Assembly: GCF_055900595.2 (NCBI RefSeq)
Contig: NZ_CM148325.1
Direction: 5' to 3' (one strand)
DNA: 64,000 nucleotides
The translations under genes and the position numbers were made by a program. The notes below the pieces were generated by a model. The model made no database searches. It was not told the origin of the DNA and saw only the letters and a program-made list of their open reading frames with translations. Shown piece after piece: positions 1 through 31,352 of this stretch. Position 1 is the stretch's first letter; each line of letters begins with the position of its first letter.

Positions 1-66
1 ATTTTCAGCCATCATCCATTCGGCGATTAACAAGTAGAGTGGTTTTTCAACATATCCTTCACACAT
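1..66 (-). CDS. caiF: CaiF transcriptional activator, N-terminal 22 codons only (gene continues beyond window start)
   Basis: Reverse complement of 1..66 translates MCEGYVEKPLYLLIAEWMMAEN, matching the remembered CaiF N-terminus; start codon ATG at 64..66. Confidence 0.75.
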   Translation of the reverse strand, partial: MCEGYVEKPLYLLIAEWMMAEN

Positions 67-246
67 ACGAACTCCAGTTTCACAAATTAAAAGTCTGGCT
101 ATGACTCGTTTTGAAGCAATTAAACAAGGCCATATTAAAATTGTGGATATATCGATAGTATGCAACTTCACCGTCGATAAGTGTGAGCTAAATCCTGCTT
201 ATGTCATCAAAAAATATCGATTCCCCAAAAGATTTACTTAATGGGC

Positions 247-275
247 AAAAAAAACGGTCCTCATCAGAGAACCGT
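247..275 (-). terminator. Putative rho-independent terminator downstream of carB
   Basis: Imperfect hairpin (acggtcctc / gagaaccgt) with a run of A on + strand (T-run on - strand) just after the carB stop. Confidence 0.45.
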
Positions 276-327
276 ATTAGTTATTCGATCAAATTAGCGG
301 ATGAAAAATATCCGCCATGACACGCTA

Positions 328-3300
328 TTATTTGATCTGCGCGTGCATTTCCTGCACCGAAATTACTTTTTCAGTCGCATCGGCATTCAGCGCCATCGCG
401 GTAGCGAAACCACCGTTCAGGGTGGTGTCATAGTGCACTTTATATTGCAGCGCACTGCGACGAATCACGCGGGAGTCCTCAATCGCACGACGGCCTGAGG
501 TGGTGTTGATGATGTAGGTATATTCGCCATTCTTGATACGGTCCTGAATGTGCGGACGACCTTCATGCACCTTGTTCACCAGACGCGGGTTAATACCTGC
601 TTCGCCCAGCACAATCGCTGTGCCGTGGGTCGCATCCAGCTCGAAGCCCTGTTTCAGCAGTTTTGCCGCCAGGTCAACCACGCGTTCTTTATCGCCTTCA
701 CGCACGGAGAGCAACGCACGACCGTGTTTCTTCATCGTGGAGTTACTGCCCAGCTGCGCTTTGGCAAACGCTTCAGCGAAGGTGCGGCCCACGCCCATCA
801 CTTCCCCGGTAGAGCGCATTTCTGGCCCTAACAGCGGGTCAACGCCGGGGAATTTGTTGAACGGCAGCACCACTTCTTTCACCGAGTAATATGGCGGGAT
901 AACTTCTTTAGTTACGCCCTGCTCAGCCAGCGATTTGCCAGCCATCACACGCGCTGCCACTTTCGCCAGCGGTACGCCGGTGGCTTTAGAGACGAACGGA
1001 ACGGTACGCGCCGCACGCGGGTTAACTTCAATCAGGTAGACTTCGTTGTTTTTCACCGCAAACTGCACGTTCATCAGACCGCGCACCTGCAATTCGAAGG
1101 CCAGTTTCTGCACCTGTTGGCGCATCACATCCTGAATTTCCTGACTTAAAGTGTAGGCTGGCAGAGAACATGCAGAGTCACCGGAGTGCACGCCCGCCTG
1201 CTCGATATGCTCCATGATGCCGCCAATCAGCACCATTTCACCGTCGCAGATGGCGTCCACATCCACTTCTACCGCGTCATCGAGGAAGTGGTCCAGCAAT
1301 ACTGGTGCATCGTTAGACACGCTCACCGCCGTCTGGAAGTAGCGACGCAGGTCAGCTTCGTCATAGACGATTTCCATCGCCCGACCGCCGAGAACGTAAG
1401 ACGGACGCACCACCAGCGGGTAACCAATCTCTTTTGCCTTCTCAACCGCCATTTCAATAGCGGTAACGGTGGCGTTCGCCGGTTGTTTCAGTTTCAGACG
1501 GTCAACCGCATGCTGGAAGCGTTCACGGTCTTCCGCACGGTCGATAGCATCCGGGCTGGTGCCGATAACCGGTACGCCAGCGGCTTCCAGTGCGCGCGCC
1601 AGTTTCAGCGGGGTCTGGCCGCCGTACTGGACGATAACGCCTTTCGGCTTCTCAATACGCACGATTTCCAGCACATCTTCCAGGGTTACCGGCTCAAAGT
1701 AGAGGCGATCGGAAGTGTCGTAGTCAGTGGAGACGGTTTCCGGGTTACAGTTAACCATGATGGTTTCGTAACCGTCTTCACGTAGCGCCAGCGAGGCGTG
1801 TACACAGCAGTAGTCGAATTCAATACCCTGACCGATACGGTTCGGGCCGCCGCCGAGCACCATGATTTTGTCACGGTCAGATGGGTTGGATTCGCACTCT
1901 TCTTCATAGGTGGAGTACATATACGCGGTGTCGGTGGCAAATTCTGCCGCACAGGTATCCACACGTTTGTAGACCGGGTGCAGGTCATACTGGTCGCGTA
2001 GCTTGCGGATTTCCGCTTCGCGCACGCCCGCCAGTTTAGCCAGACGCGCGTCGGCAAAACCTTTGCGTTTCAGCTGGCGCAGGAAGTCAGCGTTCAGGCC
2101 GGTGATGCCCACTTCTGCGACTTTCTCTTCCAGACGCACCAGTTCTTCTATCTGCACCAGGAACCAGCGGTCAATGTTGGTCAGATTGAAGACGCCGTCT
2201 ACAGACAGGCCCGCACGGAAAGCATCGGCGATGTACCAGATACGCTCTGCGCCTGCGTCTTTCAGTTCGCGGCGGATTTTGGTCAGCGCTTCCGGGTCGT
2301 CCAGGCTGACTTTCGGGTCGAAGCCAGTTGCGCCCACTTCCAGGCCGCGCAGCGCTTTTTGCAGGGATTCCTGCTGCGTGCGACCAATCGCCATCACTTC
2401 GCCAACCGATTTCATCTGAGTGGTCAGACGGTCGTTAGCACCGGCGAATTTCTCGAAGTTGAAGCGAGGAATTTTGGTGACCACGTAGTCGATGGACGGC
2501 TCGAAGGAGGCCGGAGTACGCCCGCCAGTGATGTCGTTCATCAGTTCGTCGAGGGTGTAACCAACCGCCAGTTTCGCCGCCACTTTGGCAATCGGGAAAC
2601 CGGTGGCTTTCGACGCCAGCGCCGAAGAACGGGACACTCGCGGGTTCATTTCGATAACAATCAGGCGACCATTTTTCGGGTTCACCGCAAACTGGACGTT
2701 GGAACCACCGGTTTCAACGCCGATTTCACGCAGTACCGCCATCGAGGCGTTACGCATGATTTGATATTCTTTGTCGGTCAGCGTTTGGGCTGGCGCGACA
2801 GTGATGGAGTCACCGGTGTGGATGCCCATCGCATCGAAGTTTTCGATAGAGCAGACGATGATGCAGTTGTCGTTTTTATCACGCACCACTTCCATCTCGT
2901 ACTCTTTCCAGCCGATCAGCGACTCATCAATCAGCAGCTCTTTGGTCGGAGAGAGATCCAGACCGCGGGCGCAAATTTCTTCAAACTCTTCGCGGTTATA
3001 AGCGATACCGCCACCGCTACCACCCATAGTAAAGGATGGACGAATAATGCACGGGAAGCCCACTTCAGCGGCAACTGCCAGCGCTTCTTCCATGGTGTGT
3101 GCGATACCGGAACGCGCGGTTTCCAGACCAATTTTCTTCATCGCTACGTCGAAACGGCGGCGGTCTTCTGCTTTATCAATCGCATCGGCGGTAGCACCAA
3201 TCATGGTGACGCCGAACTCCTCCAGCACGCCCTGACGCTCCAGCTCCAGCGCACAGTTCAGCGCTGTCTGACCGCCCATCGTTGGCAACACCGCGTCCGG

Positions 3301-3546
3301 ACGCTCTTTTTCAATAATCTTGCGTACCACTTCCCAGTGAATCGGCTCGATGTAGGTCGCATCAGCCATTTCCGGGTCGGTCATGATGGTCGCTGGGTTG
3401 GAGTTCACCAGAATGACGCGGTAACCCTCTTCGCGCAGGGCTTTACATGCTTGCGCGCCAGAGTAGTCAAACTCACACGCCTGACCGATAACAATCGGGC
3501 CCGCACCCAGAATCAGGATACTTTTTATATCTGTACGTTTTGGCAT
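328..3546 (-). CDS. carB: Carbamoyl-phosphate synthase large subunit
   Basis: 1072-aa [33 protein letters not shown]... ending MHAQIK, recognised as CarB; follows carA in the expected operon order. Confidence 0.97.
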
Positions 3547-3563
3547 GGCTCTTTTACTCCTGA

Positions 3564-4712
3564 TTACTTAGCGGTTTTACGGTACTGCTCAATTAACGCG
3601 ATAAAGTGGTCGAACAACGGCGCGGCGTCGTGTGGACCCGGACTGGCTTCAGGGTGGCCCTGGAAGCTGAATGCCGGTTTATCGGTGCGATGAATGCCCT
3701 GTAACGTACCGTCGAACAGGGATTTATGCGTAACACGCAGGCTTGCAGGTAATGTTGCTTCATCCACCGCAAAACCGTGGTTCTGGGCGGTGATCATCAC
3801 CACGTTTTTTTCAACATCTTTAACCGGATGGTTGCCGCCGTGGTGTCCAAATTTCATTTTGACAGTCTTCGCACCGCTCGCCAGCGCCAGCAACTGATGG
3901 CCGAGGCAGATGCCGAATACCGGGATGTCGGTTTCGAGGAATTTCTGGATGGCAGTAATAGCGTAATCACACGGTGCCGGGTCGCCAGGACCGTTGGAGA
4001 GGAAGATACCGTCTGGATTCATTTTCAGTACATCTTCGGCAGATGTTTGCGCCGGAACGATGGTCAGGCGGCAGCCGCGGTCAACCAGCATGCGCAGGAT
4101 GTTGCGTTTGGCGCCGAAATCATAAGCCACGACGTGGAACGGCAACTCGTCTTCTTTCTTCGCTTCTGGCAGGCCGCCGGTCAACGTCCAGCTCCCTTGT
4201 GTCCAGCTATAGGCTTCTGCGGTGGTCACTTCTTTTGCCAGATCCATGCCGTTCAGACCTGGGAACGCGCGGGCTTTTTCTAACGCCAGCGCCGCATCCG
4301 GGTTGTCGCCCGCGATAATGCAGCCATTCTGTGCGCCTTTCTCACGCAGCAAACGCGTCAGCTTACGGGTATCGATATCAGCAATCGCCACAATGTTATG
4401 GCGTTTCAGGTAAGAAGAGAGGTCTTCGGTATTACGGAAGTTGCTGGCAATCAGCGGCAGGTCGCGAATCACCAGACCTTGGGCATGTACCTGAGAAGAT
4501 TCTTCATCGGCGTCATTAGTGCCGACATTGCCAATATGGGGATAAGTAAGAGTAACGATTTGACGAGAATAGGAAGGATCAGTGAGGATTTCTTGATAAC
4601 CGGTCATTGAAGTATTGAAAACGACTTCCCCAACCGCCGAACCTGTTGCCCCTATGGCCCGACCGTGAAACTGGGTTCCGTCTTCCAGAACCAATAGCGC
4701 TGACTTAATCAA
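3564..4712 (-). CDS. carA: Carbamoyl-phosphate synthase small subunit (glutamine amidotransferase)
   Basis: ORF contains ...[21 protein letters not shown]...; start placed at the TTG preceded by GGAGGG, matching the remembered non-ATG start of carA (ORF track extends 9 codons further upstream). Confidence 0.93.
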
Positions 4713-4715
4713 AAC

Positions 4716-4760
4716 ACCCTCCAGAGAATATTCACTCACTTTATTTGCATATTAATTCAC
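4716..4760 (-). promoter_or_regulatory. Candidate ArgR operator (ARG boxes) in the carAB promoter region
   Basis: Minus-strand sequence tgaattaatatgcaaataaagtgagtgaatattctc resembles tandem ARG boxes (TnTGAAT...ATTCAn) immediately upstream of the carA start. Confidence 0.4.
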
Positions 4761-5167
4761 AATGATGACGTAAATCAATGCAAATCTGCTTACCGACGAA
4801 TTTCTGGCAAACGGCGGCATTCTGGAGAGATGAGAGCTAAAAGTCAACTTAATGGTGGTATTTTTTATATTATTTTGTGGCTCATGCATGTTTTGCAGGC
4901 ATTAAGCGACAAAAAGATCATATAACCCGTTCTGGAAAACGCTTGCGCAGCAAGAAGATTGTATAAAATCAAAACGCGTAGAAAAAAGTGGACCAAATGG
5001 TCAAAATTTACATTAAAACAACAAAAACAGAAGAGAAAACATGTTATTTTTAGCACGATATACGCTTTTATAAATAAAAAACTCAAAATAAAAGGGCTAA
5101 AAATTAAAGCCCTTTATAATCAATAAATTAAATATGTTATTTTTGCACCATCACAAATGTTTTGTGG

Positions 5168-6004
<837 letters not shown>

Positions 6005-6155
6005 TTAATTTGCATAGACCGTTTTCAGAGTAACCAGCGCATCGCTACGCCGCCAGCCAAAAACGCTGATAATTAGAAATTAATGATAAACAGGGAGGGA
6101 TATCAGTGAAAGGCATGAGTCGATGAATGACTGCATGCCGATAACATGTGACAGG

Positions 6156-7076
6156 TTACGACGCCAGAGCCAGCACCTCAGCCACCCACTGCTGGAAACC
6201 TTTCACATCCAGATCCAGCGCCACCTGCACGTTTGCAGGTTTACTCAGGCAACCATCAATATCAACAACCGTAGTACCTGAGGTAAATTCGCCCTGCGTT
6301 TCCACCGCCACAAAACACGGCTTGAGAGTAAACAATTCCGGGTGTACCAGCCAGGCGATAGCGCAAAGATCGTGCATACGCAGTCCACTTTGCATACTGC
6401 CGCTACGGTAGTGGCTAAACAGGGCGTGTAGCATTTTTCCGGTGCGATTCAACTCCGGCAAAGTAGCGAGATAGTCAGGGGTTAACATTGCCTGATTGGT
6501 GACATCCAGACCACACATGACGATTTCGATGCCGCTACGGAAGACACAGGCTGCCGCTTCTGGATCGGCAGCGATATTAAACTCGGCGTTTGGCGTACAG
6601 TTGCCGCGTCCGGCAGAACCGCCCATGATCACCAGACGGCGAATATGCGGTTTGCATTCCGGGCATTGTGAAAGTAACAGCGCAATATTGGTTAACGGGC
6701 CGATGGCTACCAGCGTAACAGGCTCAGGCGCACGCAGCAGGGCATCACGAATCGCCAGAAATGCGGGTTTGTCCAGTGGGCTTCTGTTGTGCTCGACAAA
6801 GTCGTAGCCAGCCATTCCCGATTCACCGTGTACAGATGCCGCATTACGCGGTGCGCGTACCAGCGGCACGGAGGCTCCCTGGGCAAGCGGAATCTCCGCA
6901 TTCCAGAAATGCAGCAGTTGCAGGGCGTTGCGGGTAGTTTTCTCTACCGAGACATTACCCGCGACGGTGGTCATCAGTTGCAGGTCAAGTTCCGGGGCAA
7001 AAATCGCGGCGGCAATGGCGACGGCATCGTCAATGCCTGGGTCAGTATCAAGGAAGATGGGTATAAGTTTTGTCAT
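6156..7076 (-). CDS. rihC: Non-specific ribonucleoside hydrolase
   Basis: 306-aa ORF with [18 protein letters not shown] nucleoside hydrolase motif, recognised as RihC; N-terminus differs slightly from remembered K-12 sequence. Confidence 0.9.
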
Positions 7077-7095
7077 TACTGTCTCTCCTGGCTTG

Positions 7096-8304
7096 TTACT
7101 TGCTCATGGCTTTGAACTCATCGCGGCTGATACAGATATCCGAAATATCTTTATTCGTCACCAGACGCGGGCTAAGTTTATCGCCTTCAACAAACGGTAC
7201 TAGCGGGCAAAATTCCCCTGGAGACGCTTTATCTTCCTGCCACTGAATTTCAATGGATTCCGGCTTCATACCTGGTTTCTCTGACTGAATGACTGTGCGG
7301 ATATCCGTGGTTAACTGAAATGGCTCACACCCCTTCACATCAGTAAAAGTCGGCGTCAGATGACCATTCTTACGTTCCTGCAGATAAAAAATGCGGCCAT
7401 CGTGATAGGAAGGAATTACGTAGCAGGTATACATTTTACCTTTACTTAGCACGGGCTGAAGATAACTTGAACCTCTCTCGATCAATTCAACCTCTTTCCC
7501 CTTCCAGCGATAAACGTCAACCCCGTGACTACAGCAGCTTCCTCGCCAATGGCTGACGATCTGCTTATATTCTGCATCTGGCTCCGGCGAGGTGATTTCC
7601 TGATAAGACGCAGGCGCATCAACAAAACGTTGTGTTGAGGGATCGTAAAGCCAGGTTTGTTCGGGGATATTGGGTCCAGCGGGTAACTCTTGCGGAATGG
7701 AAAGATCCGGATAACCATCAAAATTAACATCCTTCCATTGAGGCGTAAAAATGCTACAAGTGCCGATAGAAGCAGTATATAAGGTCTGTATCGGTTTCCC
7801 ATCACGATATAATTTTATTGCTGAAATGACCGGAACATTATTACAGTCGATCGCTTTGGAAGGGTCGTAATCGTCATTCACTTCCGCCACCAGCACCAGA
7901 TCAATGCCCGGATCGTTTTTGGGTTTGTTATAGTGAAGCGCAATGGGGAAATGGTGTTTTTTATCGGCTGAAGTCCATACACCTTTTATCTCAATCGGTG
8001 AAACTTCAGCATCCCATTGACCAGAAAGTGTCTGTGTGCGCTCCTCAAGAAGCAACCGCTTAACCTGGAGAGATCCACGCAGAATTAATCGCATTTTTCT
8101 CTGATTGCAGGGTTCATAGCAATAGCTACCATGAAGGTCGTTGTTAATCCGCGTGATATCGACACTTACCTGCTTACCCGCAATCGTCCCGGAATAATTT
8201 CGATCCCAGAACGGAAATTCAAGCTGCGAAGCGCCATTGGCCGCTCCCAAACAAAATACAAAAGCCAAAAATCCCGCCAATCCATAAGCTATCTTGCTCA
8301 TCAT
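7096..8304 (-). CDS. Hypothetical secreted cysteine-rich protein (402 aa), function unknown
   Basis: Intact ORF with GGAGG Shine-Dalgarno 7 nt upstream of ATG; hydrophobic N-terminal signal-like segment ([19 protein letters not shown]); about a dozen Cys; slightly lower GC than flanking core genes; sits between ispH and rihC. Confidence 0.7.
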
Positions 8305-23967: not shown

Positions 23968-24507
23968 CTATAGCTGTTTATTCCAGAGATGCTTGAAAAT
24001 ATCTAATGTGGAGACAACATTGGCAGGCGACATTCGGTTTAATGAGGATAGAAAGGGATGAGACTCCAGGAAGTTGATAAAACGAGTCGCGCTTGCTAAC
24101 GTCGAATACCGCATTTCATTTGCTTTCTTGTTTCCTGTAAGGTTACAAACAGCCATTGAATAATCACGGGCGGAAAATGCACGCCAGACATTATTTCTCA
24201 CGCCACCACTCAAAAACAACCGCGGCGGCGTATCATAATGAGTCGTTTTCTCGCCGCGTTCTTTCACAAATGAAATATGGCACCGGCCTTGATGAATATG
24301 CTGTAAATTAGCCATTAGACAACCGCCTAATATAAAGCACTCGTGATCAAGGTAGTGTTGAATATTTATAGAATATGCTTCAGTCAGTACTCTAACCAGT
24401 TCAAAATGGCGATACGCCGGAAGAACAGGTTTCACCAGCATCCCCGGATCGTTTTGATGTAATATCGCCCGACCATAATCAATATCAAATAAAGTATCAC
24501 GTCGCAT
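23968..24507 (-). CDS. Hypothetical protein (179 aa), function unknown
   Basis: ORF with its own strong Shine-Dalgarno (AAGGAG 8 nt upstream of ATG); overlaps the 3' end of the upstream zinc-ribbon ORF by 76 nt in another frame; no recognisable motif. Confidence 0.5.
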   Translation of the reverse strand: MRRDTLFDIDYGRAILHQNDPGMLVKPVLPAYRHFELVRVLTEAYSINIQHYLDHECFILGGCLMANLQHIHQGRCHISFVKERGEKTTHYDTPPRLFLSGGVRNNVWRAFSARDYSMAVCNLTGNKKANEMRYSTLASATRFINFLESHPFLSSLNRMSPANVVSTLDIFKHLWNKQL

Positions 24508-24944
24508 AGTAAGTAACTCCTTGCGTTGTACGTGATGCGCCAGTGTACCAGAAGTAATAATTTACGGATATCAGCAAGTGAAGCGCCTTGCTCAATCATC
24601 AATGCTAAATGTGTTCTTCGCGGCGTTGTATTTACATGATCCAGAGTGATAAAAGTTCCGGAACAATGATGACAATACATTCTCCTCTGCCCCTGAGCTG
24701 AATAGCCATACTTTTTCAGAGATGTGCTTCCGCAAGCTGGACATTGTGAAACCAACCCTCGCCATGAATGATTAACACGATTACGATAAATATTAAGAGA
24801 TCGTTCAGATATCACAGGAAACAAGTAACCGCATTCTCGACATAAAATATTTTTGCCTTGTGCAATATAATCCTGGCTATTCAACAACCCCAGGTTTTTG
24901 CATCCTGGTGTTTTGCAACAATCAACATTTACGTTGGTAAACAT
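24432..24944 (-). CDS. Tandem zinc-ribbon plus putative HTH protein, IS1 InsA-like
   Basis: Four CxxC pairs (CCKTPGC, CRECG, CPACG, CHHCSG); the second ribbon (CPACGSTSLKKYGYSAQGQRRMYCHHCSGTF) resembles the IS1 InsA zinc finger; start set at MFTNVNVD, which has an AGGGAG Shine-Dalgarno (ORF track starts 12 codons earlier without one). Confidence 0.5.
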   Translation of the reverse strand: MFTNVNVDCCKTPGCKNLGLLNSQDYIAQGKNILCRECGYLFPVISERSLNIYRNRVNHSWRGLVSQCPACGSTSLKKYGYSAQGQRRMYCHHCSGTFITLDHVNTTPRRTHLALMIEQGASLADIRKLLLLVHWRITYNARSYLLCDVILYLILIMVGRYYIKTIRGCW

Positions 24945-24998
24945 ATTCACTCCCTGCGAATACCCGGATATTATCGTCATATGTCAAAGAAAAGAACC

Positions 24999-25023
24999 TG
25001 ATTCAATGTGTAACATTGAATCA
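24999..25023 (-). terminator. Perfect 11-bp inverted repeat hairpin downstream of the sulfatase gene (putative terminator or operator)
   Basis: tgattcaatgt-gta-acattgaatca; on the minus strand it is followed by a T-rich stretch (ttcttttcttt). Confidence 0.5.
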
Positions 25024-25073
25024 GGCGGGCATAGCCCTAAATGGCATACATTACATTTATTATGATTATCAGG

Positions 25074-26567
25074 TTAGCCCCAGGTCACTGCTTCTGGTTT
25101 ATCACCTCTGGCTTTCATTAATGAATCATTATCAATATCGGCTTTATACTTTAAGAAATTACCATACATTTGTTTTTCAATGTCTGGATTTTTACCTATC
25201 TGATTAATGGTCTCAAAACGATCGGTTTTGAGGTTGTATAGGTACTTTGGCTTATTGTTACGATCGATGATCATTTTCCAGTCACCATCACGTATCGCCC
25301 ATTCGTCGGTTGGATCATCCTGGAATGGCATGTCAATTCCGAAGATTAATGGCTTTTCACGTTTTAGCGCCTTGTTCTCAAGGACAGGAACCAACGATTC
25401 GCCATCAAAAGTGCGGTCCGTCGGTAATTTGAAGTTCATCATTTTCGCCAGCGTAGGCATCCAGTCCAGACCATAAACGGGAGTATCTGAAACCATTCCC
25501 TTTGGAAGATGCTTTCCGTATTTAATAATCGCCGGAACACGGATGCCGCCTTCCCAAAGATTATCCTTGCGACCACGTAATCCATCCGTTTCCCCTGCCA
25601 AATTCAGCTCATACACTTTGCGCGCTTCACGCGTTACCGGACCGTTATCACTGGTAAAAATAACGATTGTGTTATCTTCTTCACCCATCGCTTTGATTTT
25701 ATCCAGCACTTTTCCAACCTGTGCATCCAGATAGCTGATGTTGGCATAATATTCCCCCACACCACGCCAGGGTTTATCCGCCCAGTCGCCATAAAATAAA
25801 TCAGGATGCTGTTTCTGATAGTCGCTCATATATTGTGAGTACATGTCGAGGTATTTTTTGGGCGAAGCCAGGGGACTGTGCACTTCGGTAAAAGCGACAT
25901 AAAGGAAGAAAGGCTTACTATCCTTTTTGTTATCCAACCAGTTAACGACTTCCGAACTGACATACTCACCACTCATTTTATCGGCACGAGGTGTGGGTTG
26001 CCCGTTACGCAACCAACCCGTCGGATACACCATGCCAAAACGGGGACGCTCCTTCGCATTATCCAGAGTAGCGTCGGTAACAAAACCCGCCGTATTAACC
26101 AGTGAGTAATCAAAGCCCATATCTTGTGCTTGTGGCTGATCGGTGCGATCGCCGCCTGCATTCAGATGCAGCTTACCCATCATTGCCGTGTCGTACCCTT
26201 GCGCTTTGAGTAGATTAGCAATCGTGAGTTCGTTACGCCCTAAGGCAACATCTTTGCCTGAAGGAATCCATGAGCGAATTCCAGTACGAAATGGCATCCG
26301 GCCGGTTAATAGCCCAGCGCGTGAAGGTGAACTTAAAGGGGCGGGGGCATAGTAGTCAGTAAATTTGACCCCTTCCTGGGCAAGCCTGTCGATATTAGGT
26401 GTTTTAACGATCTGATGACCATATGTTGCTAAATCGCCATAACCTAAATCATCCGCCATAATAATGACTAAATTAGGTTGTTTAGCCTCTGCGGCTAAGG
26501 CAGGACTAAAAGCATTCCCTGTGCAAACTGCAAGGCCGATCAAACTGGCCATTAACGTTTTCTGCAT
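25074..26567 (-). CDS. Periplasmic sulfatase, Ser-type
   Basis: 497-aa ORF with signal peptide and sulfatase signature region PLSSPSRAGLLTGR (Ser at the formylglycine position), LVIIMADDLGYGD metal-binding motif. Confidence 0.8.
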   Translation of the reverse strand: MQKTLMASLIGLAVCTGNAFSPALAAEAKQPNLVIIMADDLGYGDLATYGHQIVKTPNIDRLAQEGVKFTDYYAPAPLSSPSRAGLLTGRMPFRTGIRSWIPSGKDVALGRNELTIANLLKAQGYDTAMMGKLHLNAGGDRTDQPQAQDMGFDYSLVNTAGFVTDATLDNAKERPRFGMVYPTGWLRNGQPTPRADKMSGEYVSSEVVNWLDNKKDSKPFFLYVAFTEVHSPLASPKKYLDMYSQYMSDYQKQHPDLFYGDWADKPWRGVGEYYANISYLDAQVGKVLDKIKAMGEEDNTIVIFTSDNGPVTREARKVYELNLAGETDGLRGRKDNLWEGGIRVPAIIKYGKHLPKGMVSDTPVYGLDWMPTLAKMMNFKLPTDRTFDGESLVPVLENKALKREKPLIFGIDMPFQDDPTDEWAIRDGDWKMIIDRNNKPKYLYNLKTDRFETINQIGKNPDIEKQMYGNFLKYKADIDNDSLMKARGDKPEAVTWG

Positions 26568-26587
26568 AATTATTCCCTGATAAAAAA

Positions 26588-27349
26588 TTAGAAATCATAA
26601 CCAAGCATATAAATCATTTGATCGCCAAAGCCATCGTAGCCCAGCTTATTATCGAAATAACGCCACGTCACACTGGCTTTCCAGCGAGGATAGAACTTCC
26701 AGACAATAGTTAAACCGCCATTTAATCCGTTCCGGCCAAATTGCTGCTCCGTGTAAGCATCGTTCCTGTCCAGTTCTATTTCATTCCAGTTAGATAAAAC
26801 AAATTTTTCGTCAAATAACATAAATGGCAATACTGCTGTCCAGCCAACAACATAACCATTCCAACCATTCGTTTGACCATATTTAGCTGATACGTAGTCA
26901 CCAGATTGATTATGTAATCCAATATACGGTTTAAAAAAGCCCCACTCGCCGTTCCAGCCGAGATAACCGAATCCATAAAACATGTCCAGATCGTCACCCC
27001 ATGAGTTATCCCATTGGCCATAAATTTTGCCAAAGAATGTCATATCAGAGTCAAAGAGTCTGACATGCGTCATTGCTGAAACCGTATGATTTCTCCCTGC
27101 TACAGCATGATTGAGTACATTACTTTCATAAAATGAGTAAAATTCTGCTTCTTTAAAATTTACCCCAAAATCCGCAGTCACTTTCCATACTTCACCACGG
27201 TGAGTGTTTACAAATCCACTATTCCAGTCTGCATAACCCGCATTTATTGAACCAAAGGTTCCTTTATATTCTAATGAAGAATATGCAGGAAAATGATAGA
27301 TAGCTGTTATCAGGGTACACGCAATAAGAAGTCGTCTTTTGGCAGACAT
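26588..27349 (-). CDS. Outer-membrane channel, Tsx/OmpK family-like
   Basis: 253-aa ORF with signal peptide, aromatic-rich beta-strand pattern and C-terminal ...GYDF ending as in Tsx (GYNF). Confidence 0.7.
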   Translation of the reverse strand: MSAKRRLLIACTLITAIYHFPAYSSLEYKGTFGSINAGYADWNSGFVNTHRGEVWKVTADFGVNFKEAEFYSFYESNVLNHAVAGRNHTVSAMTHVRLFDSDMTFFGKIYGQWDNSWGDDLDMFYGFGYLGWNGEWGFFKPYIGLHNQSGDYVSAKYGQTNGWNGYVVGWTAVLPFMLFDEKFVLSNWNEIELDRNDAYTEQQFGRNGLNGGLTIVWKFYPRWKASVTWRYFDNKLGYDGFGDQMIYMLGYDF

Positions 27350-27903
27350 ATATTATGTTCTCCATTCATTGTTTTTATGATTCCATAGGAATTAATACAC
27401 CAGATAATTCATTTTGATTAAGAACGACTCAGAAAGTATATTTAAAGGTGAATGGCAAAGCGTGATGGAGATCGCAGATTACTTTTACCCCCGGGTGTGG
27501 AGGTATCGTGTTTCAAAAAGTGTGTCGATTTTAAATATCACTCATTGATTTATAAACATTTTTCCTCACAAAAAGAAAATTCAATTCTGTACAAGAATAT
27601 TTTGTATCTTCTATTACTTTCTCCAGTAATAACTCACCATTCAGGCATAACTTAAACCTCTTGTTCATAATCTCAACTTTTGTAAATGAAAACGCACATA
27701 AGAGTTAAAATAAACAATGTACTAAAGATTAATTACGCAAAAATGCGAGGCGTCTTCAGGATTAGAATCGATAAAACAGAATGGGTTAAAGAGAGCGATA
27801 TAATAGCGGCGGGTGCTTGAGGCTGTCTGTCTCAGGCATTAGCTGAACGGCAGATAGAGAAAAGCCCCGAGTGATATTTTACCATCAACCCGAGGCCCCC
27901 TAT

Positions 27904-28113
27904 ATGCAGAACACATGTAGAGTGCCTCTTACTGACCGTAAGGTCAAGGAGAAGAGAGCAATGAAGCAGCATAAGGCGATGATTGTCGCCCTGATCGTCA
28001 TCTGTATCACCGCCGTAGTGGCGGCGCTGGTAACGAGAAAAGACCTCTGTGAGGTTCACATCCGAACTGGCCAGACGGAGGTTGCTGTTTTCACGGCTTA
28101 CGAATCCGAGTAA
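27904..28113 (+). CDS. mokC: MokC, overlapping regulatory reading frame of the hok/sok-type locus
   Basis: 69-codon frame MQNTCRVPLTDRKVKEKRA... that reads in frame into hokC, as in the K-12 mokC/hokC arrangement. Confidence 0.65.
   Translation: MQNTCRVPLTDRKVKEKRAMKQHKAMIVALIVICITAVVAALVTRKDLCEVHIRTGQTEVAVFTAYESE
27961..28113 (+). CDS. hokC: Type I toxin HokC (Gef), small membrane toxin
   Basis: 50-aa frame MKQHKAMIVALIVICITAVVAALVTRKDLCEVHIRTGQTEVAVFTAYESE recognised as Hok-family toxin. Confidence 0.85.
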   Translation: MKQHKAMIVALIVICITAVVAALVTRKDLCEVHIRTGQTEVAVFTAYESE

Positions 28114-28216
28114 GAGCAACGGCGGGGAGTGATCCCCGCCACTTTACAGGTGCTCGCATATCTTCAACGCACCCTATTTTTACCCAAGCCTGCCCACAGG
28201 CAGGCTTTTGGGGAGG

Positions 28217-29347
28217 TTAGCGAGTCAGGTCGTCAAAAAACTTCTTCACACCATCAAAGAAGCTCTTTGAACGCGGGCTGTTGTGCTCACCGGTTGGGCC
28301 ACCGAAGCTTTCCTGCAGCTCTTGCAGCAGCTGTTTCTGCTTCTCGTTCAGACCTACCGGTGTTTCGACGACAACGCGGCACAGCAAGTCACCTTGCGCA
28401 CCGCCGCGAACAGACTTGACGCCTTTACCGCGCATACGGAACAGCTTACCGGTCTGGGTTTCGCCAGGCACTTTCAGTTTGACGCGACCATCAAGGGTCG
28501 GTACTTCGATTTCGCCACCCAGCGCTGCCATAGCGAAGTTGATCGGGACTTCGCAATACAGGTTGTTGCCTTCACGCTCGAAAATCGGGTGCTGTTTAAC
28601 CTGAACCTGAACGTATAGATCGCCTGCCGGTGCGCCATGCTCGCCCGCTTCACCTTCGCCCGCAAGACGGATGCGGTCTCCAGTGTCCACTCCTGCCGGG
28701 ATTTTAACGGACAGCGTTTTGCTGCGCTCAACACGACCATGACCATGACATTTGTTGCACGGATCTTTGATCAGCGTACCGCGGCCCTGACAGTGTGGAC
28801 AGGTCTGCTGTACAGCGAAGAAGCCCTGGCGCATCTGCACCTGACCAGAGCCATGACAGGTCGGACAGGTCTGCGGCTGTGTACCTGGTTTTGCACCGCT
28901 ACCGTGGCAAACGTCACACTCTTCCAGAGTCGGAATGCGGATCTCTTTGGTCACGCCACGTACAGCTTCTTCGAGGGTGAGCTCCATGTTATAGCGTAAA
29001 TCAGCACCGCGCGCCGCACGTTGACGACCACGTCCGCCGCCAAAAATATCGCCGAAAACGTCACCAAAAATATCGCTGAAGTCTGCGCCGCCGCCAAAAC
29101 CGCCGCCGCCCATGCCGCCTTGCTCAAACGCAGCATGACCATACTGATCGTATGCCGCACGTTTTTGCGAGTCGGTCAGAACTTCATAAGCTTCCTTGAT
29201 CTCTTTAAATTTCGCCTCGGCCTCTTTGTCACCCTGGTTACGGTCCGGGTGGTATTTCATGGCCAGGCGTTTGTAGGCCTTTTTGATTTCACGCTCTTCC
29301 GCTGTTTTGGAAACGCCTAAAATCTCGTAATAATCTTGCTTAGCCAT
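28217..29347 (-). CDS. dnaJ: Chaperone DnaJ (Hsp40)
   Basis: ORF contains [21 protein letters not shown]...HPDRNQGD J-domain and CxxCxGxG zinc-finger repeats; start trimmed to MAKQDYY. Confidence 0.97.
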
Positions 29348-29435
29348 CTTTTTTGATTTGCCCCTAGATGAATGCACGGGCGGAGAGGAAATTCCCCTTC
29401 GCCCGTGTCAGTATAATTACCCGTTTATAGGGCGA

Positions 29436-31352
29436 TTATTTTTTGTCTTTGACTTCTTCAAATTCAGCGTCGACAACATCGTCATCTTTCGCGTTGTTTG
29501 CAGAAGCATCAGCACCGGCAGTCTGCTGCTGGGCATGTTGCTGCTGGGCGATTTCCATCAGTTTCTGGGAAACCTGTGCCAGTTCCTGCATTTTCGCTTC
29601 GATAGCGGCTTTGTCTTCACCTTTCAGAGCAGTTTCCAGTGCAGTCAGCGCAGACTCGATAGCAGTTTTGTCGTCAGCCGGCAGTTTGTCGCCTGCTTCT
29701 TCAACCTGCTTACGGGTGCTGTGCAGCAGATGGTCGCCCTGGTTGCGAGTCTGTACCAGCTCTTCAAACTTACGGTCAGCTTCGGCGTTAGCTTCTGCGT
29801 CGCGTACCATTTTCTGGATTTCATCTTCGTTCAGACCAGAAGAAGCCTTGATGGTGATCTTCTGCTCTTTACCGCTGTTTTTATCTTTCGCGGAAACGTG
29901 CAGGATACCGTCAGCATCGATATCGAAGGTAACTTCGATCTGCGGCATACCGCGCGGTGCCGGGTTGATACCATCCAGGTTGAACTGACCCAGAGATTTG
30001 TTATCAGCTGCACGTTTACGTTCACCCTGCAGCACGTGGATGGTTACCGCAGACTGGTTGTCTTCAGCGGTAGAGAACACCTGGCTGTGCTTGGTCGGGA
30101 TAGTGGTGTTTTTCGCGATCAGCGTCGTCATCACACCGCCCATGGTTTCGATACCCAGAGACAGCGGGGTAACGTCCAGCAGCAGTACGTCTTTTACGTC
30201 ACCAGTCAGAACACCACCCTGAACAGCAGCACCGATGGCTACAGCTTCGTCCGGGTTAACGTCTTTACGCGGCTCTTTACCAAAGAACTCAGCAACTTTC
30301 TTCTGAACCATTGGCATACGAGTCTGACCACCAACGAGGATAACGTCGTCGATATCAGATACGGACAGGCCAGCGTCCTGCAGTGCAACTTTCAGCGGCT
30401 CAATGGAACGGTTTACCAGGTCTTCAACAAGGCTTTCCAGTTTCGCACGAGTCACTTTGATGTTCATGTGTTTCGGACCGGTCGCGTCTGCAGTGATATA
30501 CGGCAGGTTAACGTCGGTCTGCTGAGCGGAAGAAAGTTCGATTTTCGCTTTTTCTGCCGCTTCTTTCAGGCGCTGCATTGCCAGCGGATCGTTGCGCAGG
30601 TCAATGCCCTGATCTTTCTTGAATTCTTCAACCAGATAGTTAATCAGACGGCTGTCGAAGTCTTCACCACCCAGGTGGGTATCACCGTTGGTTGCCAGAA
30701 CTTCGAAGGTTTTTTCGCCGTCAACTTCGTCGATTTCGATAATGGAAATATCGAAAGTACCACCACCCAGGTCATAAACCGCGATAGTACGGTTGCCAGT
30801 ACCTTTGTCCAGACCGTAAGCCAGCGCAGCGGCGGTCGGTTCGTTGATGATACGTTTTACTTCCAGACCAGCGATACGGCCTGCGTCTTTGGTTGCCTGA
30901 CGCTGAGCATCGTTAAAGTATGCCGGTACGGTAATAACAGCTTCAGTTACCGGTTCGCCCAGGTAATCTTCCGCGGTTTTCTTCATTTTTTTCAGCACTT
31001 CAGCAGAAATCTGCGGCGGTGCCATTTTCTGGCCTTTAACTTCGACCCAAGCGTCGCCGTTATCAGCAGCAATAATTTTGAACGGCATGATGGAAACATC
31101 ACGCTGTACTTCTTCGTCCTGGAAGCGGCGGCCAATCAGGCGTTTAATCGCAAACAGGGTGTTTTGCGGGTTTGTCACTGCCTGACGTTTAGCCGGCTGA
31201 CCAACCAGAGTTTCACCATCCTGGGTATAGGCAATGATAGAAGGCGTGGTGCGATCGCCTTCGGCGTTCTCCAGTACACGAGGAGTGGTGCCATCCATAA
31301 TCGCTACACAAGAGTTGGTAGTACCCAGGTCGATACCAATTATTTTACCCAT
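29436..31352 (-). CDS. dnaK: Chaperone DnaK (Hsp70)
   Basis: 638-aa [50 protein letters not shown]... recognised as DnaK. Confidence 0.98.

Follow-up and report, generated by a model that had tools for sequence, protein, structure and literature searches.

A probably intact hokC/sokC type I toxin-antitoxin module in its IS186-free form, lying between dnaJ and a variable island

The window, that is the whole 64,000-nt stretch of contig NZ_CM148325.1 (assembly GCF_055900595.2) that was analysed, carries the toxin gene hokC with its overlapping mokC frame, convergent with dnaJ on one side and separated from nhaA by a variable island on the other. The orientation of the window is inverted with respect to the K-12 map, and the comparison was made with NC_000913 14000..19800. 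The genes and the island are arranged as follows.

21585..22508, minus strand: nhaR, flanking gene
22550..23716, minus strand: nhaA, flanking gene
23957..27730, no strand: variable island between nhaA and hokC, 3,774 bp, borders set by blast against K-12
23968..24980, minus strand: broken zinc-ribbon gene of the island, from Pfam and the annotation in relatives
25074..26567, minus strand: sulfatase gene of the island, from Pfam and the annotation in relatives
26588..27349, minus strand: Tsx/OmpK-like porin gene of the island, from Pfam and the annotation in relatives
27904..28113, plus strand: mokC frame, 69 aa, with its ATG at 27904, an in-frame N-terminal extension of hokC
27961..28113, plus strand: hokC toxin gene, 50 aa, a Hok/Gef ORF with Shine-Dalgarno sequence AAGGAG at 27946..27951
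28217..29347, minus strand: dnaJ, convergent with hokC, from its ORF and the annotation in relatives, stop codon at 28217..28219
29436..31352, minus strand: dnaK, flanking gene

The original prediction, made from the letters of the DNA, had described both the Hok frame and the overlapping Mok frame as intact, and the searches bore this out. HokC matched the Pfam family PF01848 (HOK_GEF) with 85.5 bits (E 1.8e-24, cut-off 22) over profile positions 1-42 of 42, its coding sequence aligned to that of K-12 with zero DNA differences, and no stop codon lies between the ATG at 27904 and hok. The mokC start is homologous to that of K-12 mokC and to the mok AUG of the R1-type locus, and K-12 annotates mokC (b0018) as an in-frame extension of hokC at the same position; codon 2 of Mok is CAG (Gln) in the window vs CTG (Leu) in K-12. 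By homology with R1 hok/sok, translational coupling of mok and hok would be expected here. The codon for Tyr47 of HokC (28099..28102) stands in a UACG context, and A-to-I recoding by TadA (Tyr to Cys) has been described for hokB, with similar reports for hokC, hokD and hokE (preprint 10.1101/2025.08.07.668861). In E. coli AVS0068, hokC has been naturally inactivated by a change of CAG to TAG at codon 3 (aligned to window 27967..27969), and the RefSeq annotation starts at an ATG further downstream, giving a shorter 'Hok/Gef family protein'.

The leader of the locus matched the Rfam family RF01794 at 27811..27963 on the plus strand, with 116.9 bits (E 1e-26, gathering score 59) and over the full model, 1-157, which is far above chance level. 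The family bears the name 'sok antitoxin'; the strand that it matches is that of the hok mRNA, over the stretch between the 5′ end and the hok AUG, and on the minus strand the Rfam search reported no match to it. RF01794 models the refolded hok leader, with its tac/ucb stem, and not the Sok RNA. Since the match was on the plus strand alone, SokC could not be delimited by Rfam, and the K-12 annotation was used for it. The RNA elements of the locus, some transferred from K-12 or read from the sequence and others predicted from folds, are given below.

27799..27804, plus strand: -10 element TATAAT of the hokC/mokC promoter, read from the sequence, aligning with the R1-type hok -10
27811..28210, plus strand: predicted full-length hokC mRNA, ~400 nt, from tac to the terminator U-run
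27811..27822, plus strand: tac (translational activator), at the mRNA 5′ end, with fbi, ucb or 27829..27840 as partner depending on the fold
27862..27869, plus strand: ucb, the anti-Shine-Dalgarno box, matching the outer stem of the Rfam consensus
27891..27896, plus strand: mok Shine-Dalgarno region CGAGGC, 8 nt upstream of the mok AUG
27900..27920, plus strand: predicted Sok-target hairpin with loop CAGAACA, from folds of truncated mRNA, covering the mok AUG
27912 to 27854, minus strand: SokC antisense RNA, 59 nt, transferred from the annotated K-12 sokC (b4413, 16952..17010)
27919..27947, minus strand: sokC promoter, with -35 TTGACC at 27947..27942, a 17-nt spacer and -10 CACTCT at 27924..27919
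27924..27928, plus strand: dcb, GCCUC, predicted partner of the mok Shine-Dalgarno region after truncation, overlapping the sokC -10 on the opposite strand
28121..28140, plus strand: first 3′-UTR hairpin, GGCGGGGA-GUGA-UCCCCGCC, a perfect hairpin in the folds
28162..28174, plus strand: fbi, CUUCAA-C-GCACCC, pairing with tac in the full-length minimum free energy (MFE) fold
28187..28209, plus strand: terminator, a hairpin at 28187..28206 followed by UUU, from folds of both strands

On the dnaJ side, hokC had been described as lying directly beside the dnaJ 3′ end with no IS186, and the two stop codons are indeed 103 nt apart with no IS or other insertion between them. The K-12 order given in the original prediction was also correct: IS186A separates dnaJ from hokC in that strain, with hokC starting ~530 bp from nhaA. 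In the blast comparison, window 27731..28136 aligned to the hokC side of K-12 with 98.5% identity, 28125..28316 to the dnaJ side and 23506..23956 to the nhaA side. IS186A of K-12 interrupts the equivalent of window 28126..28135, where the empty target GGAGTGATCC of the window supplies the loop and some of the stem of the 28121..28140 hairpin; with a single copy of this target and homology continuous across the site, IS186 is absent from hokC in the window. The IS186 junctions in K-12 and in strain 17-07187 show a 10-bp duplication, and 22 nt separate the hokC stop from the start of the IS, in agreement with the 22 bp downstream of the reading frame reported for K-12 (bioRxiv 10.1101/2020.03.04.975888). 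In 17-07187, which is unrelated to K-12, the junction comes with an IS186/IS421 transposase. The terminators of hokC and dnaJ are reverse complements of each other, one hairpin being common to both convergent genes. Its U-run lies on the hokC strand, the dnaJ strand having UUGGGUAAAAAU after the hairpin, so that read-through of dnaKJ into antisense hokC seems possible. Further along, in the dnaK-dnaJ intergenic region, the tpke11 sRNA family (RF02031) was matched at 29348..29425 on the minus strand with 68.8 bits vs a gathering score of 43.

Of 5,426 complete E. coli genomes, 3,814 (70%) had an uninterrupted hokC–dnaJ junction, and the remaining ones break at 28125..28132, the IS186 site. The island was present at a coverage of at least 80% in 1,271 of the 5,426, and the OmpK-like gene, hokC and dnaJ were contiguous as in the window in 1,236, about a quarter. 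Both the missing IS186 and the island count as ordinary differences between strains within the E. coli pan-genome. In PMC3562002, which cites Pedersen and Gerdes 1999, an IS-free hokC/sokC is described for ECOR24, and gef/sof of K-12 is given as the same locus, with fbi thought to be disrupted by IS186. As most E. coli genomes share the arrangement, which is already published, the unusualness that had been implied for the IS-free junction disappears.

On the other side of hokC, window 23957..27730 stands in place of 112 bp of K-12. Accessory genes thus separate hokC from nhaA as had been noticed, the island measuring 3,774 bp vs the ~3.6 kb estimated by eye. Its zinc-ribbon gene, annotated in relatives as 'IS1/IS1595 family N-terminal zinc-binding domain-containing protein' with a length of 1,245 bp, is split in the window into overlapping ORFs of 179 aa and 182 aa, and since the region is ~267 bp shorter than in the relatives it is probably a pseudogene. 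A degraded chaperone-usher fimbrial operon lies next to nhaR (16973..21547, plus strand), with an IS1 transposase at 17817..18320 after the fimbrial subunit gene, a PapD-like chaperone in two ORFs and usher fragments covering ~1-321 of a 549-position profile. When window 17000..27800 was compared with the complete E. coli genomes, none was above 97.8% identity. This ceiling, together with the IS1 and the pseudogenes, suggests a lineage absent from the collection, possibly a Shigella-like or host-restricted one.

A Sok-type antisense RNA had been expected on the minus strand around 27850..27940, and alignment to K-12 places SokC at 27912..27854 with a promoter reaching to 27947. The lack of a recognisable sok promoter or antisense region in such an alignment had been named as the outcome that would count against this expectation; instead, SokC was identical to K-12 sokC at 57 of 59 positions, and the whole promoter stretch, hexamers included, was the same in both. 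The start at 27912 is 7 nt downstream of the -10. Of the two hexamers, the -35 aligned to TTGCGC of the R1-type hok/sok locus, and the -10, CACTCT, is weak, matching the consensus at A2 and T6 alone. In the fold of SokC (-23.1 kcal/mol, z -3.9), a long terminator hairpin and a U-run come after a 5′ tail that is left single-stranded; this tail, GUUCUGCAUAUAGG, is complementary to the mok start region. Judged by alignment and predicted fold, the locus thus appears to encode in cis a Sok antisense RNA opposite the mok start, with a promoter and a terminator of its own. A scan of 27600..28300 for consensus promoters and terminators returned one of each, which is chance level, and neither was at a real element; the sokC promoter, the hok promoter and the shared terminator were missed owing to the weak -10, the weak -35 and the short U-run, respectively. 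In K-12, knock-down of sokC by CRISPRi was strongly deleterious with the IS present (bioRxiv 10.1101/2020.03.04.975888).

For the hokC mRNA, the region of the -35 is weak, and we infer a start site at ~27811, which is position 1 of the Rfam model and aligns with the R1-type 5′ end; both ends of the predicted transcript were placed by analogy with R1-type hok. The ECOR24 hokC transcript is given as ~330 nt in a secondary source (PMC3562002), vs the ~400 nt predicted for the window. The full-length mRNA has a predicted MFE of -173.6 kcal/mol (z -7.3 vs shuffles; folded over 27811..28217), and in this fold tac and fbi form a helix of 12 bp with one bulge, spanning 363 nt, while ucb 27864..27869 pairs with the mok Shine-Dalgarno region 27891..27896. 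The mapping of fold-back inhibitory elements, which had been proposed as a check, therefore yielded a candidate fbi at 28162..28174 with tac as its predicted partner. Truncation of the 3′ end to 28160 or less is predicted to flip the fold, tac 27811..27818 now pairing with ucb 27862..27868, and upon further truncation the mok Shine-Dalgarno region and dcb would pair and the 27900..27920 hairpin would present the mok AUG. The first 30 nt of the mRNA, in turn, are predicted to form a 12-bp hairpin of tac with 27829..27840 (-17 kcal/mol, z -5.1).

The predicted folds thus contain a metastable 5′ hairpin that would sequester tac in the nascent transcript, as well as a masking of the mok Shine-Dalgarno region by ucb that would give way to tac/ucb and SD/dcb pairing on 3′ truncation. 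This element scheme matches the published model for hok of R1, in which a metastable hairpin, tac/fbi pairing and the ucb anti-Shine-Dalgarno box are followed by tac/ucb and SD/dcb pairing after 3′ processing, and in which dcb overlaps the Sok promoter (PMC9841398).

The long-range pairing of the two ends of the mRNA is backed by the MFE helix and by compensatory changes in three homologues, which together argue for a tac/fbi interaction at this locus. Within E. coli hokC, tac and fbi did not vary between the window and the five E. coli genomes set beside it, so that these six alleles showed no covariation, and support was drawn from distant homologues located with Rfam. In the hokD-like plasmid locus, the R1-type locus and a Vibrio plasmid locus, a 3′ segment pairs with the locus's own 5′ end, and the helix is kept by changes on both strands, such as GGGUGC/GCACCC vs GGCGC/GCGCC and UUGAGG/CUUCAA vs UCUUGG/CCAA..GA. 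The helix is broken near the middle in all of them: the hokD-like, Vibrio and window loci have one bulged base there, and the R1-type locus has a mismatch of one nucleotide per strand. Over six divergent strains, the whole transcript region was near-invariant, in contrast to its variable upstream flank. A shuffle test on the duplex energy between tac and the 3′ UTR was not significant, 214 of 2000 shuffles being as good, and was dropped because the pairing that it chose in the R1-type locus did not involve the fbi recognised there by eye.

The predicted target loop of SokC differs from that of K-12 at one position. The predicted loop CAGAACA (27907..27913) of the window corresponds to CUGAACA in K-12, so that the YUNR motif is gone; in a motif comparison over four homologous loci, the motif directly after the mok AUG was CUGA in K-12 hokC and in the R1-type locus, CUUA in the hokD-like locus and UUUG in Vibrio, and was absent in the window (CAGA). 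YUNR is an accessory kinetic feature and not a criterion of homology. In R1 this U-turn in the hok target is decisive for rapid Sok binding (PMC6562991). Two allele-specific 34-mer searches of the 5,426 complete E. coli genomes found A at 27908 in 1,901 (35%) and U in 3,476; they replaced identity-band counts on a 109-nt query, which were unable to separate the alleles. The A/U difference is a common natural polymorphism, which also changes codon 2 of Mok from Leu to Gln. The assignment of this stretch to the Sok-target loop is a prediction from the folds.

Taken together, these results indicate, with a probability that we put at about 0.88, that this is hokC/sokC (gef/sof in older usage), an intact and IS186-free member of the hok/sok family of type I toxin-antitoxin modules, with an R1-like mechanism. 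The sequence identity, the full set of elements and the predicted folds carry this reading, and transcription, processing and killing would follow by analogy with the characterised systems. As such, the module is already known: it is hokC/sokC in the common form that no IS interrupts, with a likewise common variable island next to it, and its importance is slight beyond correct annotation. A complete and uninterrupted hokC/sokC is, however, a better natural template than K-12 for the study of chromosomal hok regulation.

By homology with hok/sok of plasmid R1, regulation would proceed as follows. An mRNA of ~400 nt would initiate near 27811, and in the nascent transcript the 5′ tac would be trapped in the metastable hairpin. 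In the complete mRNA, tac would pair with fbi (28162..28174) near the 3′ end and the mok Shine-Dalgarno region would be masked by ucb, leaving the full-length hokC mRNA neither translated nor bound by the antisense. Slow exonucleolytic trimming from the 3′ end would then remove fbi, allowing tac to bind ucb, by which the mok start would be freed and the Sok-target hairpin formed. The short and unstable SokC (27912 to 27854, minus strand) would bind to the target region, block mok translation and trigger decay, RNase III being expected to cut the duplex, and through the block on mok the translation of hok would be blocked as well. Once SokC is depleted, HokC, the 50-aa membrane toxin, would be produced.

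The same features could belong to a locus that is intact but physiologically silent, a relic whose toxin is never released naturally and whose conservation reflects recent ancestry or selfish addiction. IS186 sits in the 3′ hairpin of ~30% of E. coli genomes, and in AVS0068, one of the strains sampled, codon 3 of hokC is a stop, from which it follows that loss is tolerated; yet the transcript region is almost invariant in the six divergent strains in spite of the varying upstream flank, the regulatory elements are all preserved, and the K-12 sokC knock-down is deleterious despite the IS (bioRxiv 10.1101/2020.03.04.975888). On balance we regard a silent relic as doubtful, albeit a possibility to be taken seriously. 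The IS-free junction itself could be secondary, the product of a precise excision of IS186 from a K-12-like ancestor instead of an ancestral empty site, as the presence of IS186 at exactly this site in ~1,600 genomes marks either a hotspot or an old insertion. This is, however, hard to reconcile with the one clean copy of the 10-bp target GGAGTGATCC within a perfect hairpin, with the uninterrupted state being that of the majority (70%) and of 1,236 of the 1,271 island-bearing genomes, in diverse backgrounds, and with the treatment of the IS as derived in the literature (PMC3562002; bioRxiv 10.1101/2020.03.04.975888), and excision is in our judgement extremely improbable.

The polymorphism at 27908 bears on whether antisense control is weaker or slower here than in K-12 or R1, with silencing achieved mainly by mRNA folding (tac/fbi, ucb). 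The window sequence AUGCAGAAC is without the YUNR that K-12, the R1-type, the hokD-like and the Vibrio loci all have and that is decisive for rapid Sok binding in R1 (PMC6562991), and the sokC -10, CACTCT, is poor. The A allele is nevertheless clearly viable, being carried by 1,901 of 5,426 genomes, the complementarity between SokC and its target is perfect by construction, K-12 has the same weak -10 and yet its SokC is annotated and gives a phenotype when knocked down, and the loop assignment comes from MFE prediction only; weaker antisense control thus seems unlikely. If YUNR matters as it does in R1, the A and U lineages at 27908 would differ in the ease of HokC release, and the polymorphism is in any case a ready natural experiment on antisense binding kinetics. 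A broader conjecture, to which we attach little weight, pictures a fully armed hokC, with fbi and terminator intact, that has lost the U-turn: SokC would bind more slowly, A and U lineages would differ in HokC release, and read-through from dnaKJ, dnaJ being a heat-shock gene, could yield RNA antisense to fbi and couple heat shock to hokC activation. The reading that we retain is the intact, IS186-free hokC/sokC module with an R1-like mechanism, and the named systems can be set beside it as follows.

The closest is hokC/sokC of K-12 MG1655 (gef/sof; b4412, b0018, b4413), which occupies the same position, convergent with dnaJ, and differs from window 27737..28132 at 3 of 396 nt, namely 27779 G/A, 27898 C/T and 27908 A/T (window/K-12). 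K-12 thus has T at the equivalent of 27898 and U at that of 27908, with YUNR and Leu2 of Mok, where the window has C and A. In K-12, IS186A cuts the hokC coding sequence off from fbi and the terminator, whereas the site is empty in the window, and K-12 is without the 3.77-kb island that the window has. By its description in PMC3562002, hokC/sokC of ECOR24 can be likened to the window, being the same locus, IS186-free and with an intact fbi, and the reference 'wild-type' hokC. As summarised in bioRxiv 10.1101/2025.08.07.668861, neither post-segregational killing nor rifampicin activation could be mediated by the hokC copy on the ECOR24 chromosome.

The comparison with hok/sok (parB) of plasmid R1 used an R1-type copy from an IncFII plasmid. 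Its elements follow the same order as in the window, from the -10 through tac, ucb, the mok Shine-Dalgarno sequence and AUG, dcb with the Sok promoter, the hok Shine-Dalgarno sequence, hok and the first 3′ hairpin to fbi and the terminator; it belongs to the same Rfam family (87.2 bits), with tac/fbi kept by compensatory changes, and its toxin is ~41% identical to that of the window. The R1 system is plasmid-borne and acts in post-segregational killing, whereas the window locus is chromosomal. The R1-type leader is ~20 nt longer than that of the window, its target loop has YUNR and its terminator is not common with a neighbouring gene, the window being the opposite on both of the latter points.

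On Phytobacter and Enterobacter plasmids, a relBE type II toxin-antitoxin pair is followed directly by a hok homologue, the adjacency known for relBE-hokD (relF) in K-12. The hokD-like locus that we compared, from an IncHI1B plasmid, is unlike the window in its plasmid location and in a leader insert. Its toxin is 82% identical, its leader reaches 114.9 bits in Rfam and its 12-nt tac is identical to that of the window; its fbi has the same bulged geometry, with a G-C pair replacing the window's G-U in the tac/fbi helix.
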